A stretch of DNA of 62,938 bases, counting the filler, from Craspedostauros australis (taxonomy: Eukaryota), in NCBI GenBank assembly GCA_030167865.1. It is 13 parts of 13 records of this genome, joined end to end, with 100 filler letters (N's around TTAATTAATTAA, not from the genome) between each part and the next. Parts side by side here need not be neighbours in the genome. Positions count along the whole stretch, not along the records: positions 41,594 to 46,257 come from JALAGF010006584.1; 12 more parts are not named here. One strand, written 5' to 3'. How positions within the stretch are numbered: position 1 is the first letter of the stretch; each line of letters starts with the position of its first letter. The position numbers were made by a program, and so were the translations under genes. Below, piece after piece: positions 4,325 to 57,808 of the stretch. The notes beneath the pieces were generated by a model, which saw only the letters and a list, made by a program, of their open reading frames with translations, had not been told where the DNA came from and did not search any database.

Positions 4325-4424
4325 NNNNNNNNNNNNNNNNNNNNNNNNNNNNNNNNNNNNNNNNNNNNTTAATTAATTAANNNNNNNNNNNNNNNNNNNN
4401 NNNNNNNNNNNNNNNNNNNNNNNN
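4325..4424. other. Artificial scaffold-joining spacer N44-TTAATTAATTAA-N44 (first of 12)
   Basis: Identical all-frame-stop 12-mer inside N-runs at 4369, 7652, 19621, 22459, 27733, 34801, 37663, 41538, 46302, 50061, 54674 and 57753; sequence content changes abruptly across each. Confidence 0.98.
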
Positions 4425-4702
4425 GGTGGGTTGTGCTGTGACGCGACACTCGTAGCGCATCCGGGGCCCTGGCCGCCGGCTTACTCTCCGCAGTATCACT
4501 CTCCAGTTCGGTATTCTCCCGATCCTTGATACGAATGCTGACTCCCGATTGACGGCGTGTGACAGCCGCCGGTGGTTGTCAGGTACTGTTGTCACACGGT
4601 CCGTACTTCTTGACACGATNNNNNNNNNNNNNNNNNNNNNNNNNNNNNNNNNNNNNNNNNNNNNNNNNNNNNNNNNNNNNNNNNNNNNNNNNNNNNNNNN
4701 NN

Positions 4703-5958
4703 GCGCGTTTGAGCGCAGCCTCACCCATGAGCTCTCCGGTGCTGCGGAAGTGGCGTGAAGACTCCACCACGAGCACTTGTGCTGCGGATGGAAGACTGCG
4801 GAACACCACGTCCGGCAGGCGGTAATGGGAGGACTTCTTGCGGTCGCTGGATGCCTTGTCGAATGATCACTTGCGGTCGGGACGACTGTCCTTCTGGTGC
4901 ATGCGTCGGCTGCGTCCTGGGGACTTGTCGAGGTCGGCGTTGGCGAGGATCTTGTCATGGCGCATGCGCGTCTCGCGGACCCAGGAGAAGGACTCCTTGG
5001 TCTGCTGTAGGCTTGTGATCACGCTGGCAAATCGCTCGTCGCGGATGCTGCGGAAAAACCTTGCGATCTTCTCCTGATCGTTCATTGGCTTGCCATTGTC
5101 CTCGATTGCATGGAGGGACATCGAAAAGTCATTGACGAAAGTCCCAAAGGAACCGTTGCCAGAGTATATGAGCTTGGAGAGTCTTTCCTCCTCCTCTGCC
5201 ACGATGCCGGCCTGATTCTTGGCGGACTCGTAGATGCGAATGAGAGATTGGAAGGCGGCGTGGCCGCTGGGTTCCTCTGCTGTGACAATGTACTGCGCGT
5301 CTCCCTTGCAGGTTTTGGAGCGGAGCACTGCGTAGAACTGAGCGTCCACTGATGCGCGGTAGTGTGGTGGTTTCTCTTGCAGCATGTAGTCCGCAAACTT
5401 GGAGGTGACCAACTGCCGCATGAAGTCTGTCTTCCATTGGTACCACTCAATGTTGAGACCACTGAATGTCTCTGCCTCCGGCATGGTGATCTTATCGTAT
5501 TTCCATCCGGTTGGCGTCGATGGTGATTGACTAAGTTCCTGCTGGCGCCGTGGCGAATGTACCACGACCTCATGGCTTGCAGCCTCAGTGAGTTCGCGGC
5601 TTGCTGCCTTCATATCCGCCTCCAATTGGAGCTGGATGGCTTTGAGCACGACGGGAGTCTTGATGGAGGGCACTGTGTACCCAGAGGACTTGATGAACTT
5701 GTCAATTGCATCCCAGTTGGTAGCTTGATCAACCTGGCGCTCCTTGGCGAAGGCAAAGATGCGGAGGATGTTCTCAATGTTGATTGAGGTGAGTGTTGGC
5801 GAAAGAGACAGCACCTGGATGATGTTCTTCTCCAGACTCTGGATGGTGCGTTCGATCCTGCCAAGCTTCTTGCGGATGAACTCCATGTCATCGTCTTCGA
5901 GCTCAACAAGCTCCTTGATGACGGTCGTCCAGGTACGGTTGTTGATTGGTCTTGCCAT
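4703..5958 (-). CDS. gag: Copia Gag, interrupted by an in-frame TGA at 4867-4869
   Basis: ATG at 5958 (MARPINN). The same frame stays open past the TGA (SFDKASSDRKKSSHYRLPDVVFRSL...) to the N-gap. Confidence 0.75.
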
Positions 5959-16631: not shown

Positions 16632-18448
16632 CTTGTCGGTTGCTCTTGTATACTATGATGCAGGTGGTGAAGACGTTGATGTTGGGAAGCTGATGGTCTT
16701 GTTTTGATTACCACCCGCCCACTTGCTTCTTTCGTTCGCACTTACAGTTGGTGGAATAGATTTTATGGGGACGTTGATCGTAGACGCACTTGCAAAAAGT
16801 TGCATGCATGTCTGTTGATTGGGACGCGCCACAGAGGCACGCGGCTTGTGATAGTGGCAATCTTTGAGATGGCTTTGACAATACCATGCTTTCCGGTTGC
16901 GATACATCAACGCTCTGCAGACGGGTTGCAGAATCTGACAAGCCGAGAACTTGTCTATTGTCACGCCGATTTGTTGCGCCCGTCTGTTCGTAAAAATGGA
17001 TTTGTGAGCACCTTGCGTTGCTCGAGACTCTTGCGTCGTCGTGACCGTTAGACGCAGGTTGTATTGACCTCAGACGTTATTCCGTGGAGGCGCACGTATC
17101 TTGGCGGGGCCCGATGGTGCTAGCGGTCCTCGTCGTTTTGTTATTCTGTTTGTCCGAAATATTCCCAATAGATTTTCTTGGGATGCACGAACCACTTGGT
17201 TGTTGTCGTTATGGTGTGATGTTGAAGGCTCTCGACGTGATCGAATGTTGCAAAGAACAATGATGTCAAGACGGAGTAATCATATTAGTCGAATTCCGGC
17301 GTCGTTGAATTCAATGGGTGCCCCAGTACGAAATCTACGGGTGACGGTGATGGTTCTCACCAACACGAGGATGCCCGCTTGCGCAATACAACTCCGCGAC
17401 ATGTCGACAGAGAACAACCAAACATGACCCAAATGGGGTACAAGTGCTTCTGGCCTTATGCGACTCTGTCAAGACCAAGTCTTGCCGAAACCCGGTTTTG
17501 TTGAACTGGCATTGACGTCAGATTGATGCTTCTCGTCAATGCGTCGGACCGACAGAGCATTGCTACAACACGGAGCACTGTGAGAGTGTCGGAAGAACGG
17601 ACCAACTGGCCAAGAAGTATCTCTCCCCCGCGACTCTTTGGTTTGTGACTGAATGGGCGCAGAAGTCGCTCGCAACTCTGTGGAACAGAGCCATTTCATA
17701 CTCCTCAATTCGGAAATGATTCAACCCGAACATAGGCACGGCACGCTCTGTTTTTGTCGTTCAGCCACCCTAAAAAGCTGCGGGAGAAATATTAATTCCT
17801 GCAATCCATTTCTAGTAGAATAAGAAGCACGCCCGACGGACCCTGATAGTATACTCTCTGAGATATCGTAGAGTGCATGCGATACCATCGTAGTTGGTAC
17901 CATGGTTGTGTCCAACCCTCATTTCGTCGCTGTCTGTGTCATCTCCTGGTATATTAGCATTATGCTTTATTCTGCACAGCTCTCTCTCTCTCATGTTCCA
18001 GCTTAGTTGTGCATATGAATCGTATCCTGAACCAACACGAACCATGAAATGGTCAGACCACGAGCGAATAGCTCGAAGAGGAACAAAAATGATGATGTAC
18101 CAAGGTACTGGATGCCAGAGACAAGATACCATGAAACAAGAATGATACTGTGAGATAGCTACTGACCCAAACCAGTTGAACCTGAGGAGATGTAAAGATC
18201 CTATCCGATGCATGCAGAACAAAAGAATGCAAGAGAAGAGGCATGGACATGAACAGCGGTCAGAGAGTAAGCTCACAACTCTTAAGTTTGTAATAACATT
18301 CGAGTTTCCAACAGACTTCCAGTGAATGCCACCTTCTCAATCTGATCAATTGCAGAAGGACATGTTCCTCCAACATTACTACCAATTCCTCAAGTCTAAT
18401 GGATTAACAGTTGCAATACCCTACTGCCTTATGCCGGCGGACGATTGA

Positions 18449-19494: not shown

Positions 19495-19576
19495 TGTTGG
19501 AAATCCGGGGTAACCCAGTCTCTAGTAGTAGTATCTGATTACCTATTCCTGTTGTTGCATTGTTGGAACTGTGAGT
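19495..19576 (-). repeat. 3' end of an LTR related to the copia LTR at 41203
   Basis: TGTTGGAAATCCGGGGT...TAGTAGTAG...GAACTGTGAG matches 41203-41270. Confidence 0.65.
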
Positions 19577-31274: not shown

Positions 31275-34200
31275 CATGAATAATGTCACCCAAGCAATCA
31301 CATCGCCAGTCACACCTACGAGTCGTGTTAACAGTCAATCAAGACTGACGAGTCGTGAATCAAAATTCAAGTCGGATTAGTCAAGACTCAAACTGAAGTC
31401 AGATGAGTCAAGACTCCAACTGGAAGTCTGATTAGTCAAGACTTAATCGTATGGAAATATTTGCATATGAGAAGACACTTCTTCAACCATTGACCTCCAA
31501 CCAAAATGAGAAACCTAATAGAGAAACCTAATAGAGAATGGATCGGGTTGGGAGAAGTGCAAACCGAATCATCTCGAAATGCATGAATACAGTCGACCAA
31601 GAGGTGCAGACAGCAGAAGAGAGAGAGATAGCTCAAGTAATCATAATTTGGTCTTACATCCACAACAACAACCTCAATCGTATCAAGTACAACATCATTC
31701 GAAAAAAAAAATACAACATCAATCGTACGCCGGCATAAGGCACAGTGATATCACTCCTTGCGGTTGAGCATCATCCAAGTCCAAGCAAGATGAGCGAAGT
31801 CAAGCCAGGACAGGAGCCTGTCCTCTATTGGGAGACTCCAAAAGAGAAGAAGTACCCTCGAAGCATGTACCTCAAGATGGATGTCTACGAAGATCCATCG
31901 GATGAGAGCAATATCAACACAGTGGAGACATCAGTCCTCAAGTTCAACGATGGGAGCGCAGAAGAATGGCTGAGGTTCCGCCGTGAATTCGATACTCTCA
32001 TGGCAGCAAAGCGTATGACCACTGCAGCACAGAAGATGGTCCACCTCAACAACTTGTTGATGGGGGATGCGCAGAATCGATTCGCGACAGCAGTGCAAGC
32101 AGTCAGTGGCAATACCACCTCATCAGCCAGCAGCAAGCTCCAAGAAGGGCTCAATGCTGTGGGTGCTCCATTCTTTGGACACCCAACAAGTGCTTGGCGT
32201 CGCCAGCGCAATTACATGCGCCAACATGCATCATTCAAGCATGGCGAACTGGCAAGCTTCCGTGCTCGGCTATTGGAACTAAATCAGTACCTTCCATTCA
32301 TGCCCAAGCCAGGAGCTAATATTACACCAACGGCATTCCCAGACTTTGAGCTGGTCGAGATCTTGGACCGAGCAAGTCCAGAACAATACAGCCGTGCCTT
32401 ACTCCAAAGTGGGTATCAGGTGTATGAGCACTCTTTCGAGGAGCTCTATCGTCGCCTCCTCGATGTGGCAAATAGTTGTCGCCCCCTCAAAAAGGGCAAT
32501 GGTGCCAAGAAAGGCAAGCGTAATGCTAGCGACGAAGGCAGCCGCGGAAGGCGCGGTAAACTCCGAAATAACGACAATAAACGCCAAAAAGGCAGTCCTG
32601 CAAAATCCATTCCCAAATGTGGGAGATGCGGCAGAATCGGACATGAAACCAATGAGTGCTGGAATGATCCGAAGAACGCAAGCCTCCGCCCAAGCGGCTG
32701 GCGCGTTCCGTCCGAAGACAAAAAGGCTTCCAACAAGAGTGATGAGAACCTCAATGTGGTCTTGACCCAAGAGCTCTTCCATCAACTCGTCCAATCCTTG
32801 CCAAGCAAGAAGAATCCAAAGAAGAAGCGTCGCATCTCCGATGTAGTTGATGAAAATGCCAACTACCTGCGTCAATTGAACCAGGACAATAATGATAACC
32901 GCTCTAGTAGCAGCGCATCTACAGAATACCTAACGCCTACACACAAATGTGCAGCAAATTGCTATAGTCTGGCTAGCAGAAAGGCCAAGCGCAGTAAACA
33001 TGACCATATGTCCACCGAAATTATTGGTGAAACGGTTGATAGCAAAGGCGAATTAGTGCAAATGCGTGTCCTGCTAGACTCTGGCACATCAAGCTGCCTG
33101 ATACTAAGAAAGTATGCTCCTTGCACACTGAGACACAAAAGTGGACTCATGAAGTGGAAAACGATGGGCGGCAACTTCTATACGTCCAGCCTGGCCACGA
33201 TCAATCTAGTGCTGCCTGAATTCCACTTGCATAAGTCGATCCGTTGGACCATGCACGTTGATGAAACAACGCAAGTTGAGAATGCCCAATACGATATGAT
33301 CGTGGGTACAGACTTGATGCATGAGCTCGGAATAGACTTGTCATTCTCAGATAACACAATGACATGGGATAATAGCACGATCCCAATGAAGAATCGTGGA
33401 GTGCTGACAGATAAGAAAGCACTCGACATTGCATACCATATAGCGATGCAGTCTACCCTGCTCAACAAAGCAGAAGATAGGCAGAAGCGAATCATGGATG
33501 CTGACTACAGCGAGATAGAGCTGGATAAATACGTGTCCAAGCTGAGCCATCTCAGCGAAGCGCAACAACAAAAGCTGCTTGCGACACTCCAACGTACACC
33601 GAAGACCTTCAAAGGAGGCCTGGGTACATTGAAGATCAGTCCAGTACATCTGGAACTCAAATCAAATGCAAAGCCATTCCATGGCAAAGCCTTTCCNNNN
33701 NNNNNNNNNNNNNNNNNNNNNNNNNNNNNNNNNNNNNNNNNNNNNNNNNNNATCGGAGTGTGGGAGAAGTTCTCCAATAGTGACTGGGCTGCACCCAGCT
33801 TCATCCAGCCAAAGAAGACTGGAGATGTCCGAGTACTAACTGACTTCCGGGAGCTTAACAAGCACCTGAAACGGCGACCATATCCGTTGCCGAAGATCCA
33901 GGACATGCTTCAGAAGCTGGAACAGTTCAAATACGCAACAGCATTCGACCTGTCAATGGGGTACTACCACATTCCATTAGATACCCCCAGCCAGAATTTG
34001 TGCACCACAGTATTACCGTGGGGAAAGTACAGATATAAAAAGCTGCCAATGGGTATATCCACAGCCCCTGACATATTCCAGCGCATCATGAATGAGCTGC
34101 TTGGAGACCTAGAATTCGTACTGGTCTACCTCGATGACATACTCGTCCTGTCGGACACAAATGACAGTGACGACGATCATCTGACAAAATGTCATGCTGT

Positions 34201-34756
34201 GCTCGCGCGTCTCCAAGATGCTGGGTTCGCTGTGAACCTGCGCAAGTCATTCTTCATGATGAAGGAGCTGGACTACTTGGGTTACAAACTGACGCAACGC
34301 GGCCTCGAGCCCCAGCCAAAGAAAGTGGAAGCGATACAGCGAGTGCTGCCGCCGTCGACAAAACGACAGCTGAGACGTTTCTTAGGCATGGTCAACTACT
34401 ACCGCGATATGTGGAAGCGCAGGAGCCATGTGTTGGCCCCNNNNNNNNNNCTTACCTCCCTCGCCGCCAAGAACATGAAATGGCACTGGGGCAAGACCCA
34501 ACAGAAAGCCTTCGATGAAGCCAAACAAATGGTAATGCGAGAGGCAGCGCTAGCATACCCAGATTTTAATAAAGAGTTCCATGTGCACGCCGATGCGAGC
34601 GACTACCAACTTGGTGGCGTGATAGCACAGGAAGGAAGGCCACTGGCATTCTATACTCGTAAACTTAATGCTGCTCAAACGCGGTACACCACAGGAGAGA
34701 AGGAGCTTCTCAGCATAGTCGAAACGCTGAAAGCATTCAACAATATTCTCCTTGGT
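31275..34756 (+). mobile_element. Ty3/gypsy LTR retrotransposon: partial 5' LTR (to 31718) and single gag-pol ORF
   Basis: The LTR ends in CAACA at 31718; domain order gag-PR-RT-RNase H. Confidence 0.95.
31790..34756 (+). CDS. Gypsy Gag-Pol polyprotein (3'-partial)
   Basis: ATG 31790; knuckle CGRCGRIGHETNEC; PR LLDSGTS; RT DFRELNK, LPMG, YLDD; RNase H DASDYQLGGV...EKELLSIV. Confidence 0.93.
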
Positions 34757-34856
34757 NNNNNNNNNNNNNNNNNNNNNNNNNNNNNNNNNNNNNNNNNNNN
34801 TTAATTAATTAANNNNNNNNNNNNNNNNNNNNNNNNNNNNNNNNNNNNNNNNNNNN

Positions 34857-37718: not shown

Positions 37719-40700
37719 TGTTAAGTAAGAGTTTCTCTGCAGAACGATTCTCTCCTGCGTTGTCACATCTGACATTTTGAACCGTTACTCGCTGATTCGC
37801 TTGGAGCCATTGGAACAACAAAAGCATCTTCGACCCCACGTCGCTTTTCTCTGTGATGAAGTAACTCCAGCAGTAGTCACTGTAATCGTCGATCACAAGA
37901 AGCCAGTATTTGCCCNNNNNNNNNNNNNNNNNNNNNNNNNNNNNNNNNNNNNNNNNNNNNNNNNNNNNNNNNNNNNNNNNNNNNNNNNNNNNNNNNNNNN
38001 NNNNNNNNNNNNNNNNNNNNNNNNNNNNNNNNNNNNNNNNNNNNNNNNNNNNNNNNCCTGTCACGTTCCAGCCGTACCTCCCTGCTGTTCGAGAGATGGT
38101 GTACGCGTCAACGTGGCCTAACTTTTTATGGATTGTGTTGATGTCGACAGGTGCGCCGGTTGACACGCCAACATGAGCTTGGTCGTCCGTCTTGGCGTTG
38201 CTCACCATGGTCACTCCGCAGACGAAACCGCTATGAGTCGCCATGATGCGGTCAAAGGTGATGCGGGCCTTGCCTTTCTTCAGGGTCATGATGACGCCGA
38301 GGTTGCTGATGNNNNNNNNNNNNNNNNNNNNNNNNNNNNNNNNNNNNNNNNNNNNNNNNNNNNNNNNNNNNNNNNNNNNNNNNNNNNNNNNNNNNNNNNN
38401 NNNNNNNNNNNNNNNNNNNNNNNNNNNNNNNNNNNNNNNNNNNNNNNNNNNNNNNNNNNNNNNNNNNNNNNNNGATCGGAGACGCGAATGTTGGTCATAC
38501 CTTCGTCGCTGTTGGTGAGATGGCACGATGCGCCCGAATCGCCCAACCAGGTGTTGGTCTCGTAGTTATCCGGTGCGACGGAGGAGCGCCTTGCGGTGAC
38601 ATTGTCGGTGTTGCCGACCACCATTGCCACCTCGTGTTGTTCTGCGCGTTCGGAGTAGATTGGCAGCACCCAGTGCTCCGGACTTGGGTTTCGGACTCCG
38701 CCGTCACCTGGATGGTAGGTCCAAACGATGGAGTTCGCGGCATGGTGTGTCATGCGCGAAATCAGATCGCTGGGAAAGGGGTCGAAGCGACGGGATTCCA
38801 AGCTGTTGTTGATGTTGCATGGGTTGCGGCACACTCCCAGTGTGGTGTGCATTCTGATCTCGTGCAGTTTGAAATACACCGTGCGTGGCTCGATCAGCGG
38901 AGTGCGGTCCCCATTGTGGGTGGCCACAGCGTCGTAGCACAGTAAGGCGAGCTCACTTTGCACATCATCCGCTTTGAGCACGTTGCTGAGCGATGCTCGA
39001 ACCGCATTGCGGAGGGAGCCAGCTCTCTCAAGTCTGGTGCGTCGCTCCGCGCGCTCTTCNNNNNNNNNNNNNNNNNNNNNNNNNNNNNNNTTGTGGAGCT
39101 GGATGAAGAAAGGAACTTGGGGGCATTCCACGCACCATGCGTAGAGTGGTCCTCGCTTGAGGCACAGAGGGCACCAGGCCGTGTTGGTGACGAGTCCTGT
39201 CGAGTTCCCGATCATGCGGTCCACACGAGAGAGCTCTGGGGCGAAGTTGAAGATAGGGCGACGTGCCGCTTCTCCTCGGTTGGCATCGCCCATGTCATCA
39301 TCCACGTCCTCGGTGTCGGTGGCCCCTTCGTTGGTGAGGCTTGCGTCGTAGTAGGATTCTTGTCCTTGGTTGGAGTTGCTCNNNNNNNNNNNNNNNNNNN
39401 NNNNNNNNNNNNNNNNNNNNNNNNNNNNNNNGAGCACGTTGCTGAGCGATGCTCGAACCGCATTGCGGAGGGAGCCAGCTCTCTCAAGTCTGGTGCGTCG
39501 CTCCGCGCGCTCTTCATCGTTGGTTGGCACATTGCCTCGCGGCTCATTGTGGAGCTGGATGAAGAAAGGAACTTGGGGGCATTCCACGCACCATGCGTAG
39601 AGTGGTCCTCGCTTGAGGCACAGAGGGCACCAGGCCGTGTTGGTGNNNNNNNNNNNNNNNNNNNNNNNNNNNNNNNNNNNNNNNNNNNNNNNNNNNNNNN
39701 NNNNNNNNNNNNNNNNNNNNNNNNNNNNNNNNNNNNNNNNNNNNNNNNNNNNNNNNNNNNNNNNNNNNNNNNNNNNNNNNNNNNNNNNNNNNNNNNNNNN
39801 NNNNNNNNNGGATTCTTGTCCTTGGTTGGAGTTGCTCATCTTGTTGTTGACGTTGTGTGGTCTCAAGGAAACAATGGGAGATGTGTCAGTCTGTTCGACG
39901 ATGGATGCAAAGGCCACGTCCTCCATTACCTTGGAGTCAGCTTGGTAGTTGCTGTCGTTGTCGCGTGTTTTCGCTTCGCCTGTGTTCACAGACGAGTTGG
40001 TCACATTTTCCAATTCGTTCGTGTTTCCCGAGGTGGGCACACAAATTAATTCGTCTGTCATCACAAGAGCTACGTCGTTATTTCCTTCCATCCCATCAGT
40101 TGCCACATTAGCCGAGTCTGCCTCTTTCATGGCTGCCTTCAGCTTGAAGCACTGTAGGATCTTGTGTCCCTTCTTACCGCAGTACTTACACTCCCCGTTG
40201 AACTTGGGCTTACTGTTGTTGTCTCCTTGGCCACTCTTCTTGTTCTTGCCGTTGCCTTTCTTGGGGGCAGAGCGGCAGTCTGCCTTCTTGTGGCCGTAGG
40301 CTCCACAGTTGCGACAGTGACCTTTGAAGCCTCCTACTGCAGCGAATGCAGTCTCTTCCCTGTCATTGTTGCTCTCACGTCTGTTGCTCCCAAGCTTGAG
40401 GTGTCGGCCATCGTAGGTGGCGCTGACAGCCTCGCGGATGTCTTCGAGGGTCATGGTATTTTCCATACCGTCGAATTTGAGCTCCAAGAGCTTGATGTCC
40501 GTCTCGTATTCCCTTCCGAGGGCGTTGAGTACGAGCATGTGGTACTGTTGCATATCCATGTTGATACCAGTACTACCAAGGCGATTACGCAGCACTTCCA
40601 TCTCGGTCAGGAACGTGTCTGGGTGCTCGCCTTTCTTCAACCGCATCCCGTTGAGTTGAGCCAACAACTTTGCCTTGATAGGCGCGGTACGTTGCTCATA

Positions 40701-41493
40701 GATGCGTTCAAGGGCCTTCCACGCCTTGCGTGGGTCTCCACTCTTAGTGGGCCCGCCCTTGGTTCCCACCACAGCCATGAAGGCGACATTGCCTTCCGTA
40801 GTTTCATGGTTGATCACCATGGTCAGTTCTTCAAACGCGCACTTAGCCAGCCCATTCTTGTATACCTCCTTCTCCTCAGCAGTCATCGAGGCTATCTTCT
40901 TCGCGATAGACTCACCCTCTTCGATCTTCACATCGGAAATGAGGGCGCTGGGGCCGAAGGGAGCTGGCTTCACCTCCACCTTGTCTAGATCCATGAGGTA
41001 CAGGTCCTCAAGGCCCCTGCCCGCGGCGCGAGCTAGGAACTTGATGCTCCAACCCGTCCAGCTGGAACGCTTGCCGTCGAAGATGACAACGCGGTCACTT
41101 TTGCGGAGATAGGAGCTCATGGTGGTGTGGTGGTGGTGATGTTTGTTGCTGTGTTGGTGGGTGATGGAAACGTTGGATTTCAATCGTAATCGTTTCGAAA
41201 CGTGTTGNAAATCCNGGGTTATAGTAGTAGACTAATCTGTTATCAGTCTGTACCGTTTTAGAACTGTGAGCACAACATGCTCATCTCCTTTCGATTCCAA
41301 TTCGCAACAAACATGATCCGCAGTAGCCACCCGAGGTTACACCCTTTAGCTTGGCTCCTTTCGTCTGCATCTTCATCTTGCTTTCATCGTGGTTCATCGT
41401 TTGCTTGGCTGAGGATTGGAGAGCACCTACATTCGTCAAGATCATACTCGTAGACCTGTAGGTACCTCTCCTTCGGTCTCCTGTCACCTCACT
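37719..41493 (-). mobile_element. Ty1/copia element: 5' LTR end (41203-41493), palindromic PBS position, gag with two CCHC knuckles, accessory domain, PR, partial IN
   Basis: ATG 41120 (MSSYLRK); CRNCGAYGHKKADC and CKYCGKKGHKILQC; WLGDSGASCH; IHKKLGH; VRCDNAGEN. Confidence 0.92.
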
Positions 41494-41593: not shown

Positions 41594-44500
41594 ATGGAGG
41601 TGCAAGAGGATTGCACCAAGCAATGAGAGCAAAGAAGAGATGGATCAAGAGAGCATCTTGATCATCTCATTCCCCACACTCGCTCATCAACAATCAATAG
41701 CAATAACAGTAACAGAAACACTTTGAGAAAGAGTGTTGACTACTACCGATTCTCCGTGCGCGGAGCCTTCCAACACGTTTATAAACGTTAGCACCAGGGA
41801 AGCCCTGTGCAAGGAGAGATCGAAGAGCGAGAGACGCTGCATGAGCGACGAGCGAGAGACGAGCTAGCTTACCCTCTCACGCGCGTGATCGAGGACAAGG
41901 CGAGAAGCGAAACGAGCGCTGAATGAGCGAAGAAACCGAGGAGACTGCATTCCCTCTCACACCAGTGATCGAGGACGAGACCGAGGGAGACGAGGACGAG
42001 ACTCTGAACCTCACGCGAGAAGGAGCGGGTGCGCCCATCCAACAACCAAGAGCTCAGCAAGGAGCTATCATCGAGACAGAAGCAGAGCAAGCTGCACGAA
42101 GAGCCGGCGCAGAGACGCGGCAGAGAGACCAGCCAAGACCGACATTGGCATCAACAGAGACATCCACATCGACTCCATCACAGCGAGTGTTCAAAGTGGA
42201 AGCGTACAAGACAGAAGTACAAGAGACAGAAGGCAGGGGTAGCGCGTCAGAGAGAGACAGCGGCATCGATCCCCTCGCGTCGAACGACAACGAAGAGTCA
42301 GAGAGAGAAGAAGAGAGAGAAGAGAGCCAATCGACAGGCGGCACACAAGACACAAGCAAGCAGGCAACAACGAGAAAGAAGATGACAAAGGACACATACA
42401 AGAGGCGCAAGGCCCCACTCTTCAGCGGAAAGAAGGAAGACTACAATGCGTGGGAATCGCAAGCCAAGGCGTACGCGCGTACGCAGCGATACAAGGACAT
42501 CATGATGGGAGAGAAGCCCATCCCGACGAAAGGAGACATCGAGAAAGAGAGCGACGAAGAGAAGAGGGAGGCCCTCAAAGAGACGCGCGAACTGGCGCTG
42601 GACTGCTTCAGCGATCTGATCCTGATGATGGATGCAGAGCAAGGAACTGGAAAGCAGGCGANNNNNNNNNNNNNNNNNNNNNNNNNNNNNNNNNNNNNNN
42701 NNNNNNNNNNNAGACTGCATTCCCTCTCACACCAGTGATCGAGGACGAGACCGAGGGAGACGAGGACGAGACTCCGAACCTCACGCGAGAAGGAGTGGGT
42801 GCGCCCATCCAACAACCAAGAGCTCAGCAAGGAGCCATCATCGAAACGGAAGCAGAGCAAGCTGCACGAAGAGCCGGCGCAGAGACGCGGCAGAGAGACC
42901 AGCCGAGACCGACATCGGCATCAACAGGACAACCCACATCGACTCCATCACAGCGAGTGTTCAAAGTGGAAGCGTACGAGACAGAAGTACAGAGGACGGA
43001 AACAGAAGGCAGGGGTAGCGCGTCAGAGAGAGACAGCGACATCGATCCCCTCGCATCCAACGACAACGAGGAGTCAGAGAGAGAGAAGAAGAGAGAGAAG
43101 AGAGCCAATCGACAGGCAGCACACGAGACACGAGCAAACAGACAACAACGAGAAAGAAGATGACGAAGGACACGTTCAAGAGGCGCAAGGCCCCACTCTT
43201 CAGCGGAAAGAAGGAAGACTACAACGCGTGGGAATCGCAGGCAAAGGCGTACGCGCGTACGCAGCGATTCAAGGCCATCATGATGGGAGAGAAGCCCATC
43301 CCGACGAAAGAAGACATCGAGAGAGAGAGTGATGAAGAGAAGAGGGAGGCCCTCGAAGAGACACGCGAACTGGCGCTGGACTGCTTCAGCGATCTGATCC
43401 TGATGATGGATGCAGAGCAAGGAACTGGAAAGCAGGCGATCCAGCTGATCAACCAATGCTGCGACGAGCAGAACCCCGAGGGGAACCCAGCGGCAGCATG
43501 GAAGATGCTGAAGGAGAAATACCAGCCGACCGACGCATCCACGGTGCTGCGGCTGAAGCGCCAATTCAACACGGAACGCATGGCGAGGGATACGGATCCC
43601 GACATCTACGTCACACGGCTTGAGCTGCTCCGCACTCGCCTCCAAGATGTGAAATACGAGATCAGCGAGAGAGAGCTGATCATGCAAGTACTCAGCAGCC
43701 TCAGCAAGGACTACGACGACGAAGTGAGCAACTTCGAGTACCAACTGCAGATGGGTCCAGAGAAGGTGACGATCGAAGCCATCCGAAACGTCCTGAACTA
43801 CAGATACGCCAAACTCCAAGGTGGAAAGGCGTACGTGGACGACTTCGCAGACACGGGCAGCAAGCGCGACGACGCGGCGATGGCTGCGACAGGCGGATTC
43901 AANNNNNNNNNNNNNNNNNNNNNNNNNNNNNNNNNNNNNNNNNNNNNNNNNNNNNNNNNNNNNNNNNNNNNNNNNNNNNNNNNNNNNNNNNNNNNNNNNN
44001 NNNNNNNNNNNNNNNNNNNNNNNNNNNNNNNNNNNNNNNNNNNNNNNNNNCGCGGCAATCAAGGCAACCGCGGCAACAGAGGAAGAGGTCGTGGCAGCGG
44101 CTTCAGTGGGAAGTGCCATTACTGTGGCATCCCAGGACACCGAGAAGCCGACTGCAGAAAGAAAAAGTTCAACGAAAAGAGAAAGCAGGAAGAGCAAGGA
44201 AGCACGGCGCAAGACGGCAACGACGACAGATTCGAGATGGTGNNNNNNNNNNNNNNNNNNNNNNNNNNNNNNNNNNNNNNNNNNNNNNNNNNGTGAGCAA
44301 CTTCGAATACCAACTGCAGATGGGTCCAGAGAAGGTGACGATCGAAGCCATCCGAAACGTGCTGAACTACCGATACTCCAAGCTCCAAGGCGGAAAGGCG
44401 TATGTGGACGACTTCGCAGACACAGGCAGCAAGCGCGACGACGCGGCGATGGCTGCGACAGGCGGATTCAAAGGCAACTGCCACAACTGCGGAAAGTACG

Positions 44501-46257
44501 GCCATCGGTCTGCGAATTGTCCAGACAGAAAGCAAGCGGCCGACAGCAACAACCATCAATCCAACAACGGCCGACGAGGAGGCTACAACAACAGAGGCAA
44601 CAGAAGAGGAGATCAGCGCGGCAATCAAGGCAACCGCGGCAACAGAGGAAGAGGTCGNNNNNNNNNNNNNNNNNNNNNNNNNNNNNNNNNNNNNNNNNNN
44701 NNNNNNNNNNNNNNNGACTGCAGGAAGAAAAAGTTCAACGAAAAGAGAAAGCAGGAAGAGCAAGGAAGCACGGCGCAAGACGGCACCGACGACAGATTCG
44801 AGATGGTGATGACCATGCTCGACACGCCCGCACAAACTCACACCGCCTACGCCGTCGATGATTCATTCTTTGATACCTTCCAACACTTCCCAGGAACGGA
44901 CGAGGTCCACGACGACACGAGCATCCCTGCATGGCTCAACGACGGACCAATCATCCACGAGGTGACGCTCGACAACGAGCCTCGTTTTGATCTCGATTTC
45001 GATTACTGCCTCAACACGCACGACTTGCCNNNNNNNNNNNNNNNNNNNNNNNNNNNNNNNNNNNNNNNNNNNNNNNNNNNNATGGAGGAAGCCGGGGAGC
45101 CCCCGATTGAGCAAGACATGCTCCTGGACGACAATCTCTTCGAAGAGGCGTCAGCCGCTGGCTCCGCCGAAGAAGAGATCGCTCAAGATGACGGAGATGA
45201 CGACAGCGATGCAACTCGTCCTCTATACGTCCGGAACAGATTCCGTCCTCCCAGACCAGAAGGTCAACGAGTCTTTCGCGACCATGAAGACGTGATCTTC
45301 CCAACCGGCCTACGCTTCGGGCCCACGGACTTCTTCAACCAACGAGGGGCACACGGCAGGCATGACACTGTGCCGTACCCAACATTCACGGCCGAGATCA
45401 GACAACGCGAAATCATCAGCAACGCCATCTTCTGCGGGGCCCGCAACCTGTTCCCTAACAATCGACGCATCCAGATGGCATTCGTCGGACGAGTGTCAGG
45501 AATGTTCATCATGGCAGAGCTTCTGTCAATCGAAGAGATCCTGGCAAACAGCATGATTCTCAACAGGATCCTCGAGCGTCACGGCCAACCACCACTGAGC
45601 ATCATGGAGCGGCACTTCATCCTCGGAGGATGTACGGCGGCACTTCTTCACCACCGACCGCAGGAAAGGCAACCTGAGCCACCGCGACAGGCAAGACCGG
45701 AGCCGCCACAGCAAGCAGAACCAACGCGCCCTCCAATCGATTGGGACGATTCCAGCACGGGTGAGTCATCCTACGACGACGACTCCTCCGATGACGACGA
45801 GTTGGCAATCATGGTCGTGGATCGCACGCGCTTCCGTGCATCCGACCACCGCACCAACACACCCGATGAACACACATGGCTTGCCGACAGTGGAGCCTCA
45901 TGCCACATTGTGAATTCGGATAAGGGGATGTTCAACATCCGCCACATCCAGTCCTTTGTGAAGGTCGGTGACAACACGCAACTNAACTCACCNAAGATGG
46001 GGTCCATCTATCTCCGAGTGAAGCAACGCGACAACACACAGCGCACCATCAGACTGAACGATGTGAAGTTCGCACCCAAGATGTGGGTGAACCTGTTCTC
46101 AACGAACAAGGCGCTGGAGAATGGATACCAGATCGGCAACAACGGTATCATCATGGACATCGCAAACGGCAATGGGAACAAGATCGTGTTCGATCGAGTG
46201 TTCCGCACGCGAAATGGCTTCGTGACTGGCGTGCAGATGCATGCAGTCAAGCCACGC
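41594..46257 (+). mobile_element. Ty1/copia element: 5' LTR end (to 41775), palindromic PBS position, gag, accessory region, PR; mosaic of overlapping copies
   Basis: The LTR ends in CCAACA at 41775; APLFSGKKEDYNAW, GNPAAAWKMLKEKY, two CCHC knuckles, WLADSGASCH, NLFS. Near-duplicate segments 41941-42660 and 42712-43440. Confidence 0.92.
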
Positions 46258-49233: not shown

Positions 49234-50116
49234 AGTGGGTGGCAAGAGGACAAGGGATGGTCGTTTCTGACCATCGTTGTTGCGGAGTCGTGAGTTTTGA
49301 TGCGAGTGTGGCGAAGACAGGGGTCGTGAGAGCAGCCATGGCTCTGTGCCAACGGCGTTGAATGATCTTCATGGTCAAGTCAGGGCAACAGCTGAGAGAT
49401 GCATGATTGTGGACTTACAAGCGGATTGTATTTTGTGGGCTTTGTCTCTGATGGGCTTTGTTGTTGTTGTTATTGTCGTTGGATGAGCGATGTGCGAATG
49501 ATGGAGCGCCAAGGAGTGCTGCAAGTCTGGTACGAGTACGAGCATGATGGCAGCATGTGTAGCAGGACGAGTATGGTAGGGTGTGGGGCAATGCGATGCA
49601 AGTCCGTGAGATGCGATGGATGGTGATGCGATGGATGGTGATGCGATGCATGGTAACACACGGGAAGCGGCAGTCGAGTAATACAAGTGCCCAAGTTGTG
49701 AGACTTGAGCAACGGCTGTATCGTTTTGTGTCTGTATCTCTCTTCACTCGCACCTTGGTCTACTCGCAGAGTAAGACTGAACGTTGCGGCAGTATCGCAC
49801 GAACCATTCACTTCCAACCGATCAAAGGAATTTCGGGTTTTTCTGGGATCACAGGAAAACCTCAGTTGGAAGGATCTGATCAACACGGTCACTGCTCACC
49901 GTGGAAGGTGAAAGATGTCATGAGCAACATCTGATCGAGTACGAGTAGGTATAACATTGGTGGGAGTATCACCATGTGAAGAGCGTGGGTACTCATAGGA
50001 AGTGCAGTATGGTAAGNNNNNNNNNNNNNNNNNNNNNNNNNNNNNNNNNNNNNNNNNNNNTTAATTAATTAANNNNNNNNNNNNNNNNNNNNNNNNNNNN
50101 NNNNNNNNNNNNNNNN

Positions 50117-53100
50117 TGACCTCATCTCCTACGTTGAGCTCGCCGATATCATCGAACGGCAACAAGAGCACAGCGACGACCCTGACGCCAAGTGGGAGTT
50201 TGACTCCATCATCGGACACGAGGGTCCCCTCTCATCTTCCTCTCCCTCCTACAAGGGATCGAGCTTCAACGTCATCGTCAAATGGGGAGACGGCTCCACC
50301 TCCAACGAACCCCTCTCCATCATGATTCAGGATGATCCTGTCTCTTGCGCTGCCTACGGCCGCCGCCACGAGCTGCTCGACGAGCCTGGCTGGAAGCGCC
50401 TCAAGCGCCTCGCCATCCGCACCCATCGTCTCGAGCGCCAGGTCCACAAATCAAAGACCTTCAACCATGCTCCCACCTTCCAGTTCGGCGTCCAAGTCCC
50501 CCGCAACCACAAAGAAGCGATGCGACTCGACGACAAGAACGGCAACACTCTCTGGGCCGATGCCGAGAAGAAGGAGATGGACCAACTCTTCAGGTACCAC
50601 ACCTTCAAGTCTCTCAGCAAAGGCGCCCCTGTCCCCTCCGGCTTCCAGAAGATCCGCCTCCAATGGGTCTACGCTGTGAAGCACGACCTCCGCCACAAGG
50701 CGCGGTGCGTCGCTGGTGGACATCTCACCGACCCCTGCAAGGATGCATCCTACGCAGGTGTGGTCAGCCTCCGCTCCCTCCGACTCTCCCTTCTCGCCGG
50801 TGAACTCAACGGCATACCAACCTGGGTTGGAGACATCGGCAATGCGTATCTTGAGGCCTTCACTCAAGAACGCATCTGCTTCATCGCTGGTGACGAATTC
50901 GGTGACTTTGCTGGTCATACCATGCAGATAGTCAAGGCACTCTACGGCCTGCGCACATCGGGCGCCCGATTCCATGAGGCCCTCGCCGACACCCTTCGCG
51001 ACATGGGCTTCCTCCAATGCCGCTCCGATCCCGACGTCTGGATGCGTGACGCCACCTCCCATTGGGAGTACGTCTGCGTCTACGTCGATGATCTCACCGC
51101 GACGATGGCCGACCCCAAGGCCTTCTTCGACATCCTCTCNNNNNNNNNNNNNNNNNNNNNNNNNNNNNNNNNNNNNNNNNNNNNNNNNNTTCCGGCTTCC
51201 AGAAGATCCGCCTCCAATGGGTCTACGCTGTGAAGCACGACCTCCGCCACAAGGCGCGCTGCGTCGCTGGTGGCCATCTCACCGACCCCTGCAAGGATGC
51301 ATCCTATGCAGGTGTGGTCAGTCTTCGCTCTCTCCGCCTCTCCCTTCTCGCCGGTGAACTCAACGGCATTCCAACATGGGTTGGAGACATCGGCAATGCG
51401 TATCTTGAGGCCTTCACTCAAGAACGCATCNNNNNNNNNNNNNNNNNNNNNNNNNNNNNNNNNNNNNNNNNNNNNNNNNNCCATACCTTCAAGTCTCTTG
51501 GCAAAGGCGCCCCAGTCCCCTCCGGCTTCCAGAAGATCCGCCTCCAATGGGTCTATGCTGTGAAACACGACCTCCGCCACAAGGCGCGCTGCGTTGCTGG
51601 TGGTCATCTCACCGACCCCTGCAAGGATGCATCCTATGCAGGTGTGGTCAGTCTTCGCTCTCTCCGCCTCTCCCTCCTCGCCGGCGAACTCAANGGCATT
51701 CCAACATGGGTTGGAGACATCGGCAATGCGTATCTTGAGGCCTTCACTCAAGAACGCATCTGCTTCATCGCTGGCGACGAATTCAGTGACTTCGCTGGTC
51801 ATACCATGCAGATAGTCAAGGCACTCTACGGCCTGCGCACATCGGGCGCCCGATTCCATGAGGCTCTCGCCAACACCCTTCGCGACATGGGTTTCCTCCA
51901 GTGCCGCTCCGATCCTGACGTCTGGATGCGTGACGCCAACTCCCATTGGGAGTACGTCTGCGTCTACGTTGATGATCTCACCGCGACGATGGCCGACCCC
52001 AAGGCCTTCTTCGANANCCTCTCTTCGAAGTACGGGTACCAGCTCAAGGGAGTTGGTCCTATCAAGTACCATCTCGGTGCTGACTTCGGCCGTGATCCCG
52101 ACGGCACTCTCAAGCTCTCCCCGCAATCATACATCAAGCGGATGATGGAGAACTACGAGCGCATGTTCGGCGAGCTTCCACGCAAGATCAGCTGCCCCCT
52201 CGACAAGGCCGACAGCCCGGAGCTCGACACCTCTTCCGAACTTAGCGAAACCGACAAACGCAAGTTCATGTCACTCATCGGTGCACTCCAGTGGTGTATC
52301 TCCCTCGGGCGGTTCGACATCTCTGTCGCCGTCATGACGTTGGCACGCTTCCGCTCAGCGCCCCGCCAAGGTCATTTGGATCGCGCCAAGCGCATCTACG
52401 GATATCTTCGCAAGCACCCTGATGCTGCCATCCGCTTCCGCACCTGCGTTCCCCGCTTCGATCTTCACTACGAGGTTCCCAACCATGACTGGATCTACTC
52501 CGTCTACGGGAAGACCTCTGAGGAGATTCCGGACGACATCCCCGAGCCGAAAGGCAAACCAGTCCGAACCACCACGTTCGTCGACGCCAACCTTCTTCAC
52601 TGCCAAGTCACTGGCAGATCCGCTACCGGTGCTCTCCATCTGGTAAACCAGACCCCCATCGAATGGTTCTCCAAGCGCCAAGGCACGGTTGAGACCGCCA
52701 CCTATGGGTCCGAGTTCGATGCTGCCCGTCAAGCTACAGAGCAGATCATCTCCCTTCGCCTCGCTCTCCGCGAGATGGGCATTCCAATCGACGGCCCCAG
52801 CTGGATGCTGGGTGACAATCAGTCCGTCATCACCTCCTCCACGGTCCCCAAGAGCATGCTCTCCAAGNNNNNNNNNNNNNNNNNNNNNNNNNNNNNNNNN
52901 NNNNNNNNNNNNNNNNNNNNNNNNNNNNNNNNNNNNNNNNNNGGCACGCAGAACGTCGCCGACGTGATGACGAAGTTCCTCCCGTGGGCTGTCTTCTGGC
53001 CCCTCGTGAAGCCCATCCTCTTCTGGAAAGGGCACACCGAGTCCTCTTCCCCGACCTACAAGACCTGANNNNNNNNNNNNNNNNNNNNNNNNNNNNNNNN

Positions 53101-54729: not shown

Positions 54730-57708
54730 GCGTCGCGACATGAACAACGGATGGTGTCCGTTGTGCCTCAAGCGCGGGCCTCTCTACGCATGGTGCGTGG
54801 ACTGCCCGAACATACCCTTCTTCATCCAGCTCGCCAACGAGCCAAGAGGTGCCGTGCCTAGCAACGAAGGCGAAAGGATGGTGCGCAGAGAGGTGCTAGA
54901 TGAGACGAGCGGATTATTATTCGTGACCGCCCGATGCTCGTTGAGCAACGTCCTTTCACCAAACGACGTCCGGTCCGAACTCTCCCTCATCTGCATCGAC
55001 GCAGTNNNNNNNNNNNNNNNNNNNNNNNNNNNNNNNNNNNNNNNNNNNNNNNNNNNNNNNNNNNNNNNNNNNNNNNNNNNNNNNNNNNNNNNNNNNNNCT
55101 GTGTTAATGCATACCGGATGAACGGAATGCTAGAGAGCGTTCGCCTCCAGCCAATCCAACAGGCGCTCATCGGAGCCATGAGCAGCATCGCATCGGAGCA
55201 GCTGATGTGGATGCACCACCCGAGCATCAACGGCATCCGTGAATATCGCACCCACTGCGAGTTAACACTGTACAGCAATGCCAACGGCCACGAAATGGCA
55301 ATGGTGATCGGCGACTTGGACAACGTCGATACGCGCAAGTCGACCATCGCACCCGACCGCCNNNNNNNNNNNNNNNNNNNNNNNNNNNNNNNNNNNNNNN
55401 NNNNNNNNNNNNNNNNNNNNNNNNNNNNNNNNNNNNNNNNNNNNNNNNNNNNNNNNNNNNNNNNNNNNNNNNNNNNNNNNNNNNNNNNNNNNNNNNNNNN
55501 NNNNNNNNNNNNNNNNNNNNNNNNNNNNNNNNNNNNNNNNNNNNNNNNNNNNNNNNNNNCCTGAGCTATGGGTCAACCTCTTGAGCATCAACAAGGCTCT
55601 CGAAAACGGTTTCGATATTAGCAACCGAGGTGTGATCATGTCCCTGGAGAAGAAGGGACAACGCATTCGCTTCGATCGCATCATGGCGACGCACAGCGGA
55701 TTTGTGAGTGGCGTGAACATGATAGCCGCTCCTGCACACGACGATCAAGCCAACGTCGGAGTGTCGACGAAGAAACCGATCGACATCAACAAAATCCATA
55801 AAATGTTAGGCCATGTTGACACTTACACCATCTCTCGCACTGCGGGACGATACGGATGGAATGTCACAGGAAGCTGAACGCTTGTGTGGATTGCGCGATC
55901 GGCAAATCGCGACAACGGGGATTGACGAAGACTCTACAGCCGAGAGCAAAGAAAGTTGGAGAGCGACTGTTCATGGACACATCGAGTGTTCAGACGTACA
56001 GTTTCGGCCGAGGCAAATACTGGCTTCTGATCATCGACGATTACAGTGATTACTGCTGGAGTTTCTTTGTGAGAGAAAAGAGTGACGTCGGATCCAAGAT
56101 GGTGGGGTTATTACGGTGGCTTCAGGCGAATCAGGAAGTGAGCGTGAAAAATGTGAGGTGCGACAACGCGGGAGAAAATTACTCAACGGAGAAGCAACTA
56201 CTTAACGCTGGGTTCGGACCGACTTTCGAGTACACCGCCGCGGCCACTCCCCAACAAAATGGTCGCGTGGAGCGAAAATTCGCGGTACTATACGGAAAGG
56301 TGAGGGCCATGCTAAACCAGACGCATCTGCCGAAGAGCTCTCGAAGTAAGCTGTGGGCAGAAGCAGCTCGCACAGCCACGCAATTGGAGAACATCATCGG
56401 AACAAAGACAAGAGAACCAGCTTGCATCCTATTCAACGAGCAGATCCCCACCTACGTAGATGGACTGCGTACATTCGGGGAAATAGGGATGGTCCACATC
56501 GGAGGACGAACGATCAAAGCGAAGCTGGATAGCAGATCCAAACCGGCTATGTTCGTCGGATACGGCCAGTCGCATGCTAGTGGTGTGTACCGGATGCTGA
56601 ATCTAACTACAACGAGAATCCTAATCACAAGAGACGTGACATGGATGAACCAGTCATATGGGCAGTTCAAGGGTATTGCGAACGCCAACAGGTCAGTACT
56701 GATAGACCTGGAAGATGACGACTCTACATCGGAGATACCTTCCCCGAATAATAGAGTAACTTGGGAGCGACGTGAGGATACCATCAAGGGAATGGAGACC
56801 GACGACGCAGATCAGAGCAGAGGAGCCGGAATTGATGTAGATACAGAAGACGCTGCTCAAGGGCAAGATGACTTGCTCCCCACCCAAGGGGATGACGATT
56901 CGTACGATGATAACGACGATGAATCCGGAAGGGACAACGAGAAGAGACCACACGATCAAGACGAGGTCCCAGTCGCAACACCTGTTAGAAGCATGCCAAG
57001 GATGCTGAAGGCTCTCGCAGGGTTCAACAATTCACCCATTCCAATGGAGGAACGAGACCTAGGATCCAGTGGAGAGTCAGAATCAGATGAAGGAGAGAAT
57101 GAGACTACTCCAACAACGACTACCACACCATTGGCAACAGGAGGACAGAATTTCCACACGAATTGGTCAACATTCAACAGAGACGTCGCAGGTATGATGA
57201 TAGATACTACTCATGGTAAGATGAGACTCGATGACTTCATCACTGCGAGCCAAGGATTGGATCAACAATCACTCGAAGAGGGGTACGAGCAAGCTAATGT
57301 CGCAATGATGCTAGACCCAACCACCTTCGAAGAATGCTGGGATCATGCGGATCCCGAGAAGAGAGTGAAGTGGCGGGAGGCCATCAACAAGGAGTTCAAC
57401 GATATGGCCAGAAGAGAAGTATGGGAGAAGATCAAGATGAACCAAATGCCGAAGGATCGGCGATGCGTGAAGACCAAATGGGTGTTCAAGGAGAAGAGGA
57501 ANNNNNNNNNNNNNNNNNNNCTCGTCGCATGCGGATACTCGCAGATTGCAGGGGTTGACTTCTCAGCACACCACGCACCAGTGATACACGACGCAACCTA
57601 CCGCGTCATGCTCACAATGAAGACGTTGTTACACTTGGACAGCATCATTATCGACTTTGAGACAGCATTCTTACATGGAGAGCTCGAGGAGGAGATCTAC
57701 ATGCGATG
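54730..57708 (+). mobile_element. Ty1/copia internal fragment related to 37719-41493: accessory domain, PR end, IN, RT start
   Basis: WCPLCLKRGPLYAWC; IHKMLGH...CVDC (frameshift near 55875); RCDNAGEN, QQNGRVER, RDVTW, LVACGYSQ, ETAFLHG. Confidence 0.92.
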
Positions 57709-57808
57709 NNNNNNNNNNNNNNNNNNNNNNNNNNNNNNNNNNNNNNNNNNNNTTAATTAATTAANNNNNNNNNNNNNNNNNNNNNNNNNNNNNNNNNNNN
57801 NNNNNNNN

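Follow-up and report, generated by a model that had tools for sequence, protein, structure and literature searches.

We analyzed a 62,938-nucleotide (nt) stretch of the Craspedostauros australis assembly GCA_030167865.1, referred to below as the window, and focused on two elements in it, A and B, whose sequence marks them as Ty1/copia long terminal repeat (LTR) retrotransposons. The window is made of 13 draft contigs joined by N runs around the linker TTAATTAATTAA, with 12 linkers at positions 4369, 7652, 19621, 22459, 27733, 34801, 37663, 41538, 46302, 50061, 54674, and 57753. Because it is a chain of separate contigs, neighborhood across these joints is biologically meaningless. Element A lies on contig 41594-46257 (JALAGF010006584.1) and element B on contig 37719-41493; these are separate contigs and adjacency of the two elements in the genome is not established. 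Both encode a copia gag (PF14223, with E values of 3e-13 in A and 5e-10 in B), and the gag knuckles of B have the form C-x2-C-x4-H-x4-C. A also contains the Pol beta-barrel domain (Pol_BBD), and the integrase fragment of B aligns with the proteins P0001 and P0002, while both sequences end before the reverse transcriptase (RT). The coordinates of all features are listed in Table 1.

The LTR of element A ends with ..GCCTTCCAACA at 41775 (junction context gccttccaaca / CGTTTATAAACG / ttagcacc), and its terminal motif TTCCAACA is the reverse complement of a TGTTGGAA-type copia LTR start. The first base after the LTR, position +1, opens the perfect 12-nt palindrome CGTTTATAAACG. With the A that ends the LTR and the T that follows the core, it extends to a perfect 14-nt palindrome (41775-41788). 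An earlier note on this DNA had described exactly this arrangement, and it was borne out. The note had also pointed to a like palindrome in a second copia element, B. There we found the same arms, another center and preserved symmetry, albeit on the minus strand of a contig of its own: the plus strand reads CGTTTCGAAACG then tgttgnaaatcc, and the minus strand GGATTTNCAACA / CGTTTCGAAACG, followed by a 58-nt leader and the gag ATG at 41132. Two elements of one assembly thus carry palindromes that differ at the center.

The pattern CGTTTNNAAACG matched the window twice, both times at these two sites, against an expectation of 0.05, and none of 100 shuffled sequences contained two or more matches. 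Perfect palindromes of at least 12 nt occur 38 times in the window, 12 of them being linkers, and the remaining 26 compare with a chance expectation of about 14 for the 59,172 non-N bases. The non-random property is the position of the palindrome at +1 after the LTR end and not the occurrence of a palindrome itself; in that sense the observation is real and far beyond chance. An LTR end related to that of B, located on another contig, provides a natural control: it adjoins no gag, has no palindrome at +1, and fits a solo or 3' LTR. Since this LTR fragment ends without a palindrome, the palindrome belongs to the internal region and not to the LTR.

A protein search with the gag of B returned only two near-length relatives and no longer ones. 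We scanned metagenome contigs with the patterns [VL]RCDNAGE and KYW.., taken from an alignment of P0001, P0002, and the integrase fragment of B; 185 matches gave 111 confirmed relatives, of which 79 loci were kept. The same integrase-pattern scan of viral contigs found no relatives. A search of viral contigs for the motif CAACACGTTTNNAAACG gave 102 exact matches, none of which adjoined a copia gag in tblastn, so that we took these matches as chance and the motif alone as non-diagnostic. At E <= 1e-20, 587 related polyproteins were found. In the relatives, PF14223, PF22936, PF25597, and PF07727 share a single open reading frame (ORF). Locus L108 represents a complete element, with the LTR at 330-702, the palindrome from 703, an uninterrupted ORF of 1488 amino acids at 874-5340, a polypurine tract, and the next LTR start at 5366.

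Two sets of loci were used to survey the LTR junction. The first consisted of 30 loci whose match begins at gag residue 24 or earlier, the palindrome not being used as a criterion, and in all 30 the LTR end ..(A/G)ACA is followed directly by a palindrome or near-palindrome. The second, independent set comprised 40 loci obtained by tblastn with P0001 residues 1-250 (match starting no later than residue 40, with over 60 nt of upstream sequence). Here the palindrome stood at +1 after the LTR in 40/40 loci; 37 copies were perfect, with a 12- or 14-nt core, and three were damaged, namely TGTTTATAAACT in L130, TGCTTTAAAGTG in L180 (two G:T positions at former CpGs), and CGCTCAAGCG in L126 (mismatch at the center). 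Ten further loci were added, three from the gag-start set (L115, L147, and L163) and seven (L121, L139, L144, L146, L165, L178, and L179) from a scan for palindromes after ..ACA, which biases the latter toward the palindrome. L131, whose gag match starts only at residue 68 and which has no recognizable LTR end upstream, was excluded as 5'-truncated. The resulting table holds 50 loci plus A and B.

Among these 52 elements, 49 have perfect palindromes with 16 different sequences: 36 are 12 nt, 12 are 14 nt, and one is 10 nt long. The core starts at +1 after ..ACA in A, in B, and in 50/50 loci with a junction, and the LTRs end in ..CAACA or ..TAACA. The A..T extension of the core is found in A and in 17 of the 49 perfect cases, and not in B. 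The palindrome of A recurs at the identical position in eight metagenome loci and that of B in L107, L108, and L112. In several relatives a second perfect palindrome overlaps the first or follows it directly, for example CGCTAATTAGCG then CGCTAGCTAGCG. Another small palindrome or hairpin immediately follows the first one in L110/L111 (4199-4220 / 1154-1175), L118 (1853-1875), L121 (5037-5058), L123 (1823-1850), and L122/L125, and the clade nearest A has AGGCCT or TTGGCCAA 2-3 nt past the first palindrome.

The LTR boundary on which this survey depends was examined from both ends of the LTR. L127 contains a true 3' LTR with its flank. Its two LTR copies agree as far as ..TTTAACA(C), after which the 5' copy continues with gttttaaaacg.. 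and the 3' copy with atactgattg... At the other end, a purine run (AGGAAGGG, AGGGAGGA, or similar) abuts a TGT(T/C)(A/G) LTR start in 21 of 28 loci, and these starts lie 203-744 nt upstream of the palindrome or at the 3' end of the contig. The LTR end immediately before the palindrome, as assumed in the earlier note, is thereby confirmed as the correct boundary. Most other terminal repeats in the contigs of the relatives are assembly wrap-arounds and not LTR pairs. The polypurine tract 5' of the LTR starts (relatives L103-L163) is in itself strikingly conserved as AGGAAGGG or AGGGAGGA, despite the divergence of the elements.

Covariation was analyzed in the 12-nt class, which comprises 38 rows, 32 of them distinct. 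Of these rows, 33 are unbiased; the others are A, B, the gag-start locus L147, and L121 and L179 from the palindrome scan. Standard pairs occupy 99.5% of the 192 cells. Two-sided changes are present in 5/6 palindrome pairs and 42 cells, the sole invariant pair being the fourth (U-A). The covariation score is 0.631 compared to 0.187 in shuffles, of which 0/500 reach 0.631, and it does not exceed 0.124 in slid registers; sliding the partner by 1-3 columns lowers pairing to 31-43%. The center pair is AU in 13, UA in 10, CG in six, and GC in three sequences and is unpaired in none, and the next pair out is UA in 27 and AU in five. The 14-nt types are likewise symmetric through the center. The relatives thus keep the palindrome by covariation, which the earlier note had named as a test, and it is self-complementarity, not sequence, that stays conserved.

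A gag tree of 42 rows, from which L105, L106, L131, L153, L165, and L179 were dropped for a stop codon or a short match, shows how often the palindrome has changed. Its type differs within at least 10 well-supported clades or sister pairs, including L138 versus L135 (100/100), L141 versus L158 (99/94), L114 versus L116 (100/98), L151 versus L171 (98/98), and a clade of A, B, L110/L111, L103, L104, L108, and L117 (99/98). The palindrome changes therefore represent many events and not a single inherited difference. The pairing of A with B on this tree is a long-branch join and unreliable.

Folded on itself, a 12-nt palindrome can form at most a 4-bp hairpin with a 4-nt loop, and its two central pairs are impossible within one strand. 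Since the four central bases would be the hairpin loop, they can pair only with a second copy of the site. Predicted energies range from 0 to -4.1 kcal/mol for the hairpin and from -8.2 to -23.7 kcal/mol for the homodimer, and for the 12-14-nt types TACTTCGAAGTA, TTGTTCGAACAA, and TAATTTTAAAATTA and the 10-nt type CGATATATCG no hairpin is predicted at all. Given the covariation of the central pairs and the marginal energy of the hairpin, we conclude that the selected state is full-length pairing between two copies of the site, and the hairpin was set aside as the selected structure for the same two reasons. An identical covariation pattern would, however, also arise if one arm were copied from the other.

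We found neither a canonical tRNA-type primer-binding site (PBS) nor a Tf1-type site at the junction. TGG within 8 nt of the LTR end, the mark of a canonical PBS for a tRNA 3' end, occurs in 0/52 elements, which agrees with what the earlier note had reported for A. The longest LTR complement to the first 20 nt after the LTR measured 4-8 nt and never exceeded shuffles in 18/18 full LTRs of relatives, and it was 5 and 6 nt in the LTR portions present of A and B (182 and 291 nt); the claim that a Tf1-type complement is missing likewise stood. The palindrome is present in a single copy per element. A search of Rfam gave no family match, the only hit (ceN65, E 0.95) being far below the threshold. 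The window contains no tRNA genes, and aragorn reported none in the loci of the relatives, its output format not having been checked further. No other conserved candidate PBS was seen after the palindrome, and the sequence past it differs between clades. In A, the nucleotides directly after the palindrome (41788-41796, UUAGCACCA) resemble the sense strand of a tRNA acceptor 3' end (..GCACCA), not its complement; since relatives lack it, this likeness is probably a coincidence.

Full-text literature searches returned a single description of a palindromic site in place of a PBS, for the fungal GalEa copia elements (Donnart et al., 2017; PMC5445492). These elements have no PBS and carry instead a Conserved Hairpin Site (CHS): a 9-nt CHSeq1 forms a palindrome once the final A of the LTR is counted in, and CHSeq2, its inverse complement with a fixed A/A mismatch, lies 2-41 nt downstream. 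The CHS is thought to stand in for the PBS, and according to the authors no known model fits (PMC5445492). The CHSeq1 table in that paper lists essentially two forms, CTGATCAGT and CTAATTAGT, the second mostly in low-GC families; the G>A plus C>T difference between them could owe something to repeat-induced point mutation. CoDi-like, GalEa, and Ty elements are placed on one copia branch there. A term search of the founding paper on CoDi, the diatom copia elements (PMC2806351), showed that the text searched does not mention PBS, tRNA, palindrome, or hairpin.

The elements described here share with GalEa the lack of a tRNA PBS, a palindrome directly after the 5' LTR that includes its last A (ACTGATCAGT / ACTAATTAGT in fungi), TGTtgg...ccaCA-type LTR ends, and a site that may lie in a larger hairpin across the LTR junction. 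Within CGCTAATTAGCG and CGTTTGATCAAACG, our elements again contain the cores CTAATTAG and TGATCA. They differ in that the core is 12-14 nt long (up to 16 nt with flanks) instead of 10 nt and exists in 16 variants, transversions included, instead of essentially two. Neither the 9-mers CTGATCAGT and CTAATTAGT nor close derivatives of them were found among our 16 sequences of 10-14 nt, and only inner cores overlap the published table. The GalEa protein motifs QTDD (RT) and CQPEA (RNase H), reported together with a C2C4C4H gag knuckle (PMC5445492), occur in 0/79 loci; we found YVDD in 13, HVDD in nine, and SRPDI in 17 loci, along with a CCHC gag knuckle. For this reason the present clade is not fungal GalEa, and the sources differ as well, GalEa coming from Pezizomycotina and the present clade from environmental metagenomes and this assembly. 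The earlier note had called the site the best candidate for an undescribed mechanism in the window. A palindrome at the PBS position was already published for GalEa, whereas a mechanism is undescribed there too.

CHSeq2 was considered as a universal feature of the clade and rejected, because a repeat of at least 6 nt is found in only 10/41 non-redundant elements, B and all five GATC-type elements included and A not. The mean repeat length is 4.73 nt within elements compared to 4.28 nt across elements, and 5/5000 permutations reach the own mean. A downstream repeat of the half-palindrome is clear only in the CGTTTGATCAAACG group; a 6-nt version exists in B and four others.

According to structure prediction, a stem between U5 and the leader usually encloses the palindrome. 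In 40 non-redundant elements, left after 12 rows had been dropped as near-duplicates or for a short U5, we computed the pairing of the ~19 nt that precede ACA at the end of U5 with a 40-nt stretch starting directly behind the palindrome. The mean U5:leader duplex energy is -11.45 kcal/mol with the own leader and -7.34 kcal/mol with the leaders of others, and a mean as low as that of own leaders was reached in 0/5000 permutations. An element's own leader is the top-ranking partner in 11/40 and among the top three in 20/40. The stem of A is long and has a minimum free energy (MFE) of -28.9 kcal/mol (z -3.61, 0/200 shuffles as good) and a duplex energy of -21.5 kcal/mol (rank 1/40). Single-fold z values below -2 were obtained only for A, L147, and L152. 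Some differences between L156 and L152 keep the stem through G:U pairs, which suggests that it acts as RNA.

In reverse transcription, the U5 end of the LTR is fixed by the point at which the 3' end of the minus-strand primer anneals. It follows that the opening bases of the palindrome are those to which the primer has to anneal and that the primer's 3' end must equal the palindrome's own 3' half. As A, B, and close relatives differ, a host-encoded primer would need to change with each element; as the sequence varies by element and is found once per element, the simplest primer source is the palindrome of a second RNA copy. Building on the +1 position, the perfect self-complementarity and its upkeep through double changes that include the center, and the lack of a TGG-type PBS and of a Tf1-type complement, we propose, at about even odds in our own judgment, that the palindrome replaces the tRNA PBS in a large Ty1/copia clade and acts as a combined dimerization and primer site for tRNA-independent self-priming in trans.

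In this model, two co-packaged genomic RNAs would form a 12-16 bp duplex of their palindromes. One strand would then be nicked at the 3' edge of the palindrome, presumably by the element's RT/RNase H as in Tf1, and the new 3'-OH (...AAACG-3') would face the +1 base of the partner RNA, just past its U5, and prime minus-strand strong-stop DNA. Later copying of the primer by the plus strand would transfer an alteration from either arm to its counterpart, which would explain palindromes that are perfect and yet drift in sequence. The pairing of two genomes, the nick, and the priming are the steps we infer. The earlier note had suggested tRNA-independent priming through a hairpin or an RNA duplex, or alternatively a dimerization signal; the data support the general idea, and central covariation favors the duplex and disfavors the hairpin, with priming as the more conjectural part. 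The parts of the model have precedents: particles of Ty1 contain dimeric RNA, retroviruses have apical palindromes as dimer-initiation sites, and Tf1 primes itself (PMC3592414).

Several points weigh against this proposal. The model requires an asymmetric nick, itself a postulated step, in what would be a symmetric duplex. A dimer signal alone would explain the covariation, priming being indicated only by the +1 position and the lack of another PBS, and perfect palindromes in DNA also fit a site for a dimeric DNA-binding protein. L128 and L130 are near-identical, and L130 carries a non-compensated change in the outer pair (T..T), so that symmetrization is not seen in every copy. As to the enclosing stem, the U5:leader duplex of B (-6.6 kcal/mol, rank 17/40) is not significant alone, and single-fold z-scores are unremarkable for B, L108, and L117. 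RNAalifold, applied to 10 MAFFT-aligned sequences, drew only the small palindrome hairpin and did not recover the stem, for which the support therefore comes from the own-versus-cross duplex test and the single folds.

Of the other explanations, the one that survives best regards the palindrome as a dimer-linkage or packaging signal only, the primer being something else that went unrecognized, such as a host RNA fragment pairing at or near the site. Perfect palindromes in the 5' leader are the classical dimer-initiation motif (PMC3592414), the central covariation and the predicted dimer energies fit dimerization as such, and the palindrome sits apically in the U5:leader stem. Like retroviral dimer-initiation sites and the Ty1 PAL motifs, the site is a stem-presented self-complementary sequence of the 5' leader that is predicted to pair two genomic RNAs (PMC3592414 for the known sites). 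These known sites, however, are mostly 6 nt in a loop, at variable distance from U5, and accompanied by a separate tRNA PBS, whereas the present palindrome stands exactly where the PBS would be, and we saw no further PBS. A dimer site need not begin exactly at +1 after U5, yet this one does in 52/52 elements, and no TGG or other conserved candidate PBS follows. Moreover, any primer must pair with the U5-adjacent bases, which are the palindrome and vary between elements of one assembly. We consider this explanation unlikely.

In self-priming in cis, the RNA would be cut after the palindrome, the 5' fragment would fold into the small hairpin, and its 3' end would prime on its own U5. A hairpin was proposed by the authors of the fungal CHS work (PMC5445492). 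Every fold does draw the palindrome as a hairpin of 4-5 bp with a 4-nt loop, and this geometry sets the 3' G opposite the +1 C. On the other hand, the hairpin has the marginal energy given above and is predicted to be unfolded in TACTTCGAAGTA, TTGTTCGAACAA, TAATTTTAAAATTA, and the 10-nt CGATATATCG, and the covariation of the four central bases goes unexplained unless it stems from primer copying. We therefore rate cis priming as rather improbable.

It is improbable to a greater degree that the palindrome works as double-stranded DNA, bound directly inside the 5' LTR by a dimeric protein, either a transcription factor or one made by the element. Sites of this kind typically show perfect two-fold symmetry, and many variants start with ACGT when the last A of the LTR is counted; a protein site should conserve sequence, however, and not symmetry alone, the 16 variants differ at 5/6 half-site positions (including TACTTCGAAGTA and TAATTTTAAAATTA) so that the protein would have to change with them, and the missing PBS would be left unexplained.

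That the site is a regular PBS, whether for a tRNA, a piece of one, or some other small RNA of the host, has very little in its favor. A copia-group element with a PBS for an internal tRNA site resembles ours in having no TGG-type PBS and some self-complementarity where the PBS lies. Such a PBS, however, is fixed by a conserved host tRNA and shows no symmetric change between relatives, and an anticodon arm with its 7-nt loop does not need self-complementarity. The complement of a perfect palindrome must itself hold the same palindrome, and the variants differ among close relatives and between A and B, which share only 5 nt (CGTTT) on the primer-proximal side. TGG and Rfam matches are lacking, and the argument against a tRNA PBS is an indirect one from symmetry and variability. 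Copia-group elements are, on the other hand, known to use internal tRNA sites (PMC3592414).

Tf1-type self-priming, with the transcript's own 5' end folded back to pair with the PBS, is the one proven tRNA-independent mechanism and is hardly credible here, given that no LTR complement rises above shuffles in 18/18 full LTRs and those in the A and B portions reach only 5 and 6 nt. Tf1 and Tf2 (Ty3/gypsy group) resemble the self-priming in trans that we propose in being tRNA-independent and using their own RNA, cut by their own enzyme, as primer (PMC5445492, PMC3592414); they differ in that the Tf1 PBS pairs with the first bases of the same transcript and is non-palindromic (PMC5445492).

The choice of primer is a defining step in the replication of LTR retroelements, and to our knowledge only two solutions are established, a host tRNA and the Tf1-type fold-back of the transcript. 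We suggest, more tentatively than the proposal for this clade, a third route to start reverse transcription, in which one of two palindrome-paired RNAs would, once nicked, prime on the other, dimer linkage and primer binding would share one site, and copying of the primer would re-symmetrize that site in each cycle; this route may be common among copia elements of protists, and the GalEa CHS may possibly descend from it. Compared to the one published palindromic site at the PBS position, that of fungal GalEa with two variants and no mechanism (PMC5445492), the present site belongs to another, abundant copia clade, and its palindromes are longer and far more variable. It offers a testable rule, namely that the site must pair with a second copy of itself over its whole length, which points to the RNA dimer as the priming complex, and the 16 natural variants are ready-made compensatory mutants. 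If the proposal is right, genome dimerization would be linked to the initiation of reverse transcription, and LTR-finding programs that require a tRNA PBS would miss or misjudge such elements.

Table 1. Features of elements A and B and of the related LTR fragment, in window positions.
Feature	Position	Strand	Remarks
Element A, 5' LTR, U5-proximal 182 nt	41594..41775	+	start missing at contig start; ends TTCCAACA
Palindrome of A, perfect, 12 nt, CGTTTATAAACG, +1 after LTR	41776..41787	+	
U5 arm of predicted U5:leader stem enclosing the A palindrome	41748..41771	+	MFE, duplex energy
Leader arm of predicted U5:leader stem enclosing the A palindrome	41798..41821	+	MFE, duplex energy
A gag ORF start with acidic N-terminal extension, to first assembly gap	41923..42661	+	
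A gag core, within second near-duplicate 5' region past N gap	43160..43902	+	PF14223, E 3e-13
Element B, 5' LTR, U5-proximal 291 nt	41203..41493	-	cut by contig end; ends GGATTTNCAACA
Palindrome of B, perfect, 12 nt, CGTTTCGAAACG, +1 after LTR	41191..41202	-	
CGTTTC, repeat of 5' half of the B palindrome, 18 nt downstream	41167..41172	-	CHSeq2-like; could pair with 3' half
B leader GAAATCC	41175..41181	-	complements U5 GGATTTN (41208-41214); weak predicted 7-bp stem around the B palindrome, one base N
B gag, two CCHC knuckles, 441 residues excluding gaps	39810..41132	-	
B integrase fragment (KYWLLVIDD...VRCDNAGEN)	37720..37914	-	seed of metagenome scan
LTR end related to the LTR of B, other contig	19495..19576	-	no adjoining gag, no palindrome at +1

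The remaining retroelement pieces of the window (298-4372, 31739-34804, 50073-53068, and 55820-57760) comprise gypsy-type RVT_1/RT_RNaseH_2 and several copia RVT_2 fragments. An LTR junction is absent from all of them; the first contig likewise lacks one and starts within a coding region. An internal near-duplicate is present in one copia fragment, with palindromes repeated at 51294/51624 and 50957/51841. The main gene on the contig with the LTR fragment related to B encodes a 1444-amino-acid AAA_16/TPR protein (12318-16652, minus strand).

Between the zinc knuckles of gag and the protease, both A (45082-45870) and B (38474-39800, minus strand) have several hundred residues that P0001 does not have. 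In B this extra stretch includes a Cys-rich motif, ..AWCPLCLKRGPLYAWCVECP.., seen twice across gaps, for which no Pfam family was reported. The 5' part of the A gag is found twice in near-identical form flanking N gaps, with a 59-nt block of 100% identity at 41942-42000 and 42712-42770, and the duplicated translations run parallel in different frames. This duplication probably arose when several copies were collapsed or expanded in the assembly, or it is a tandem.

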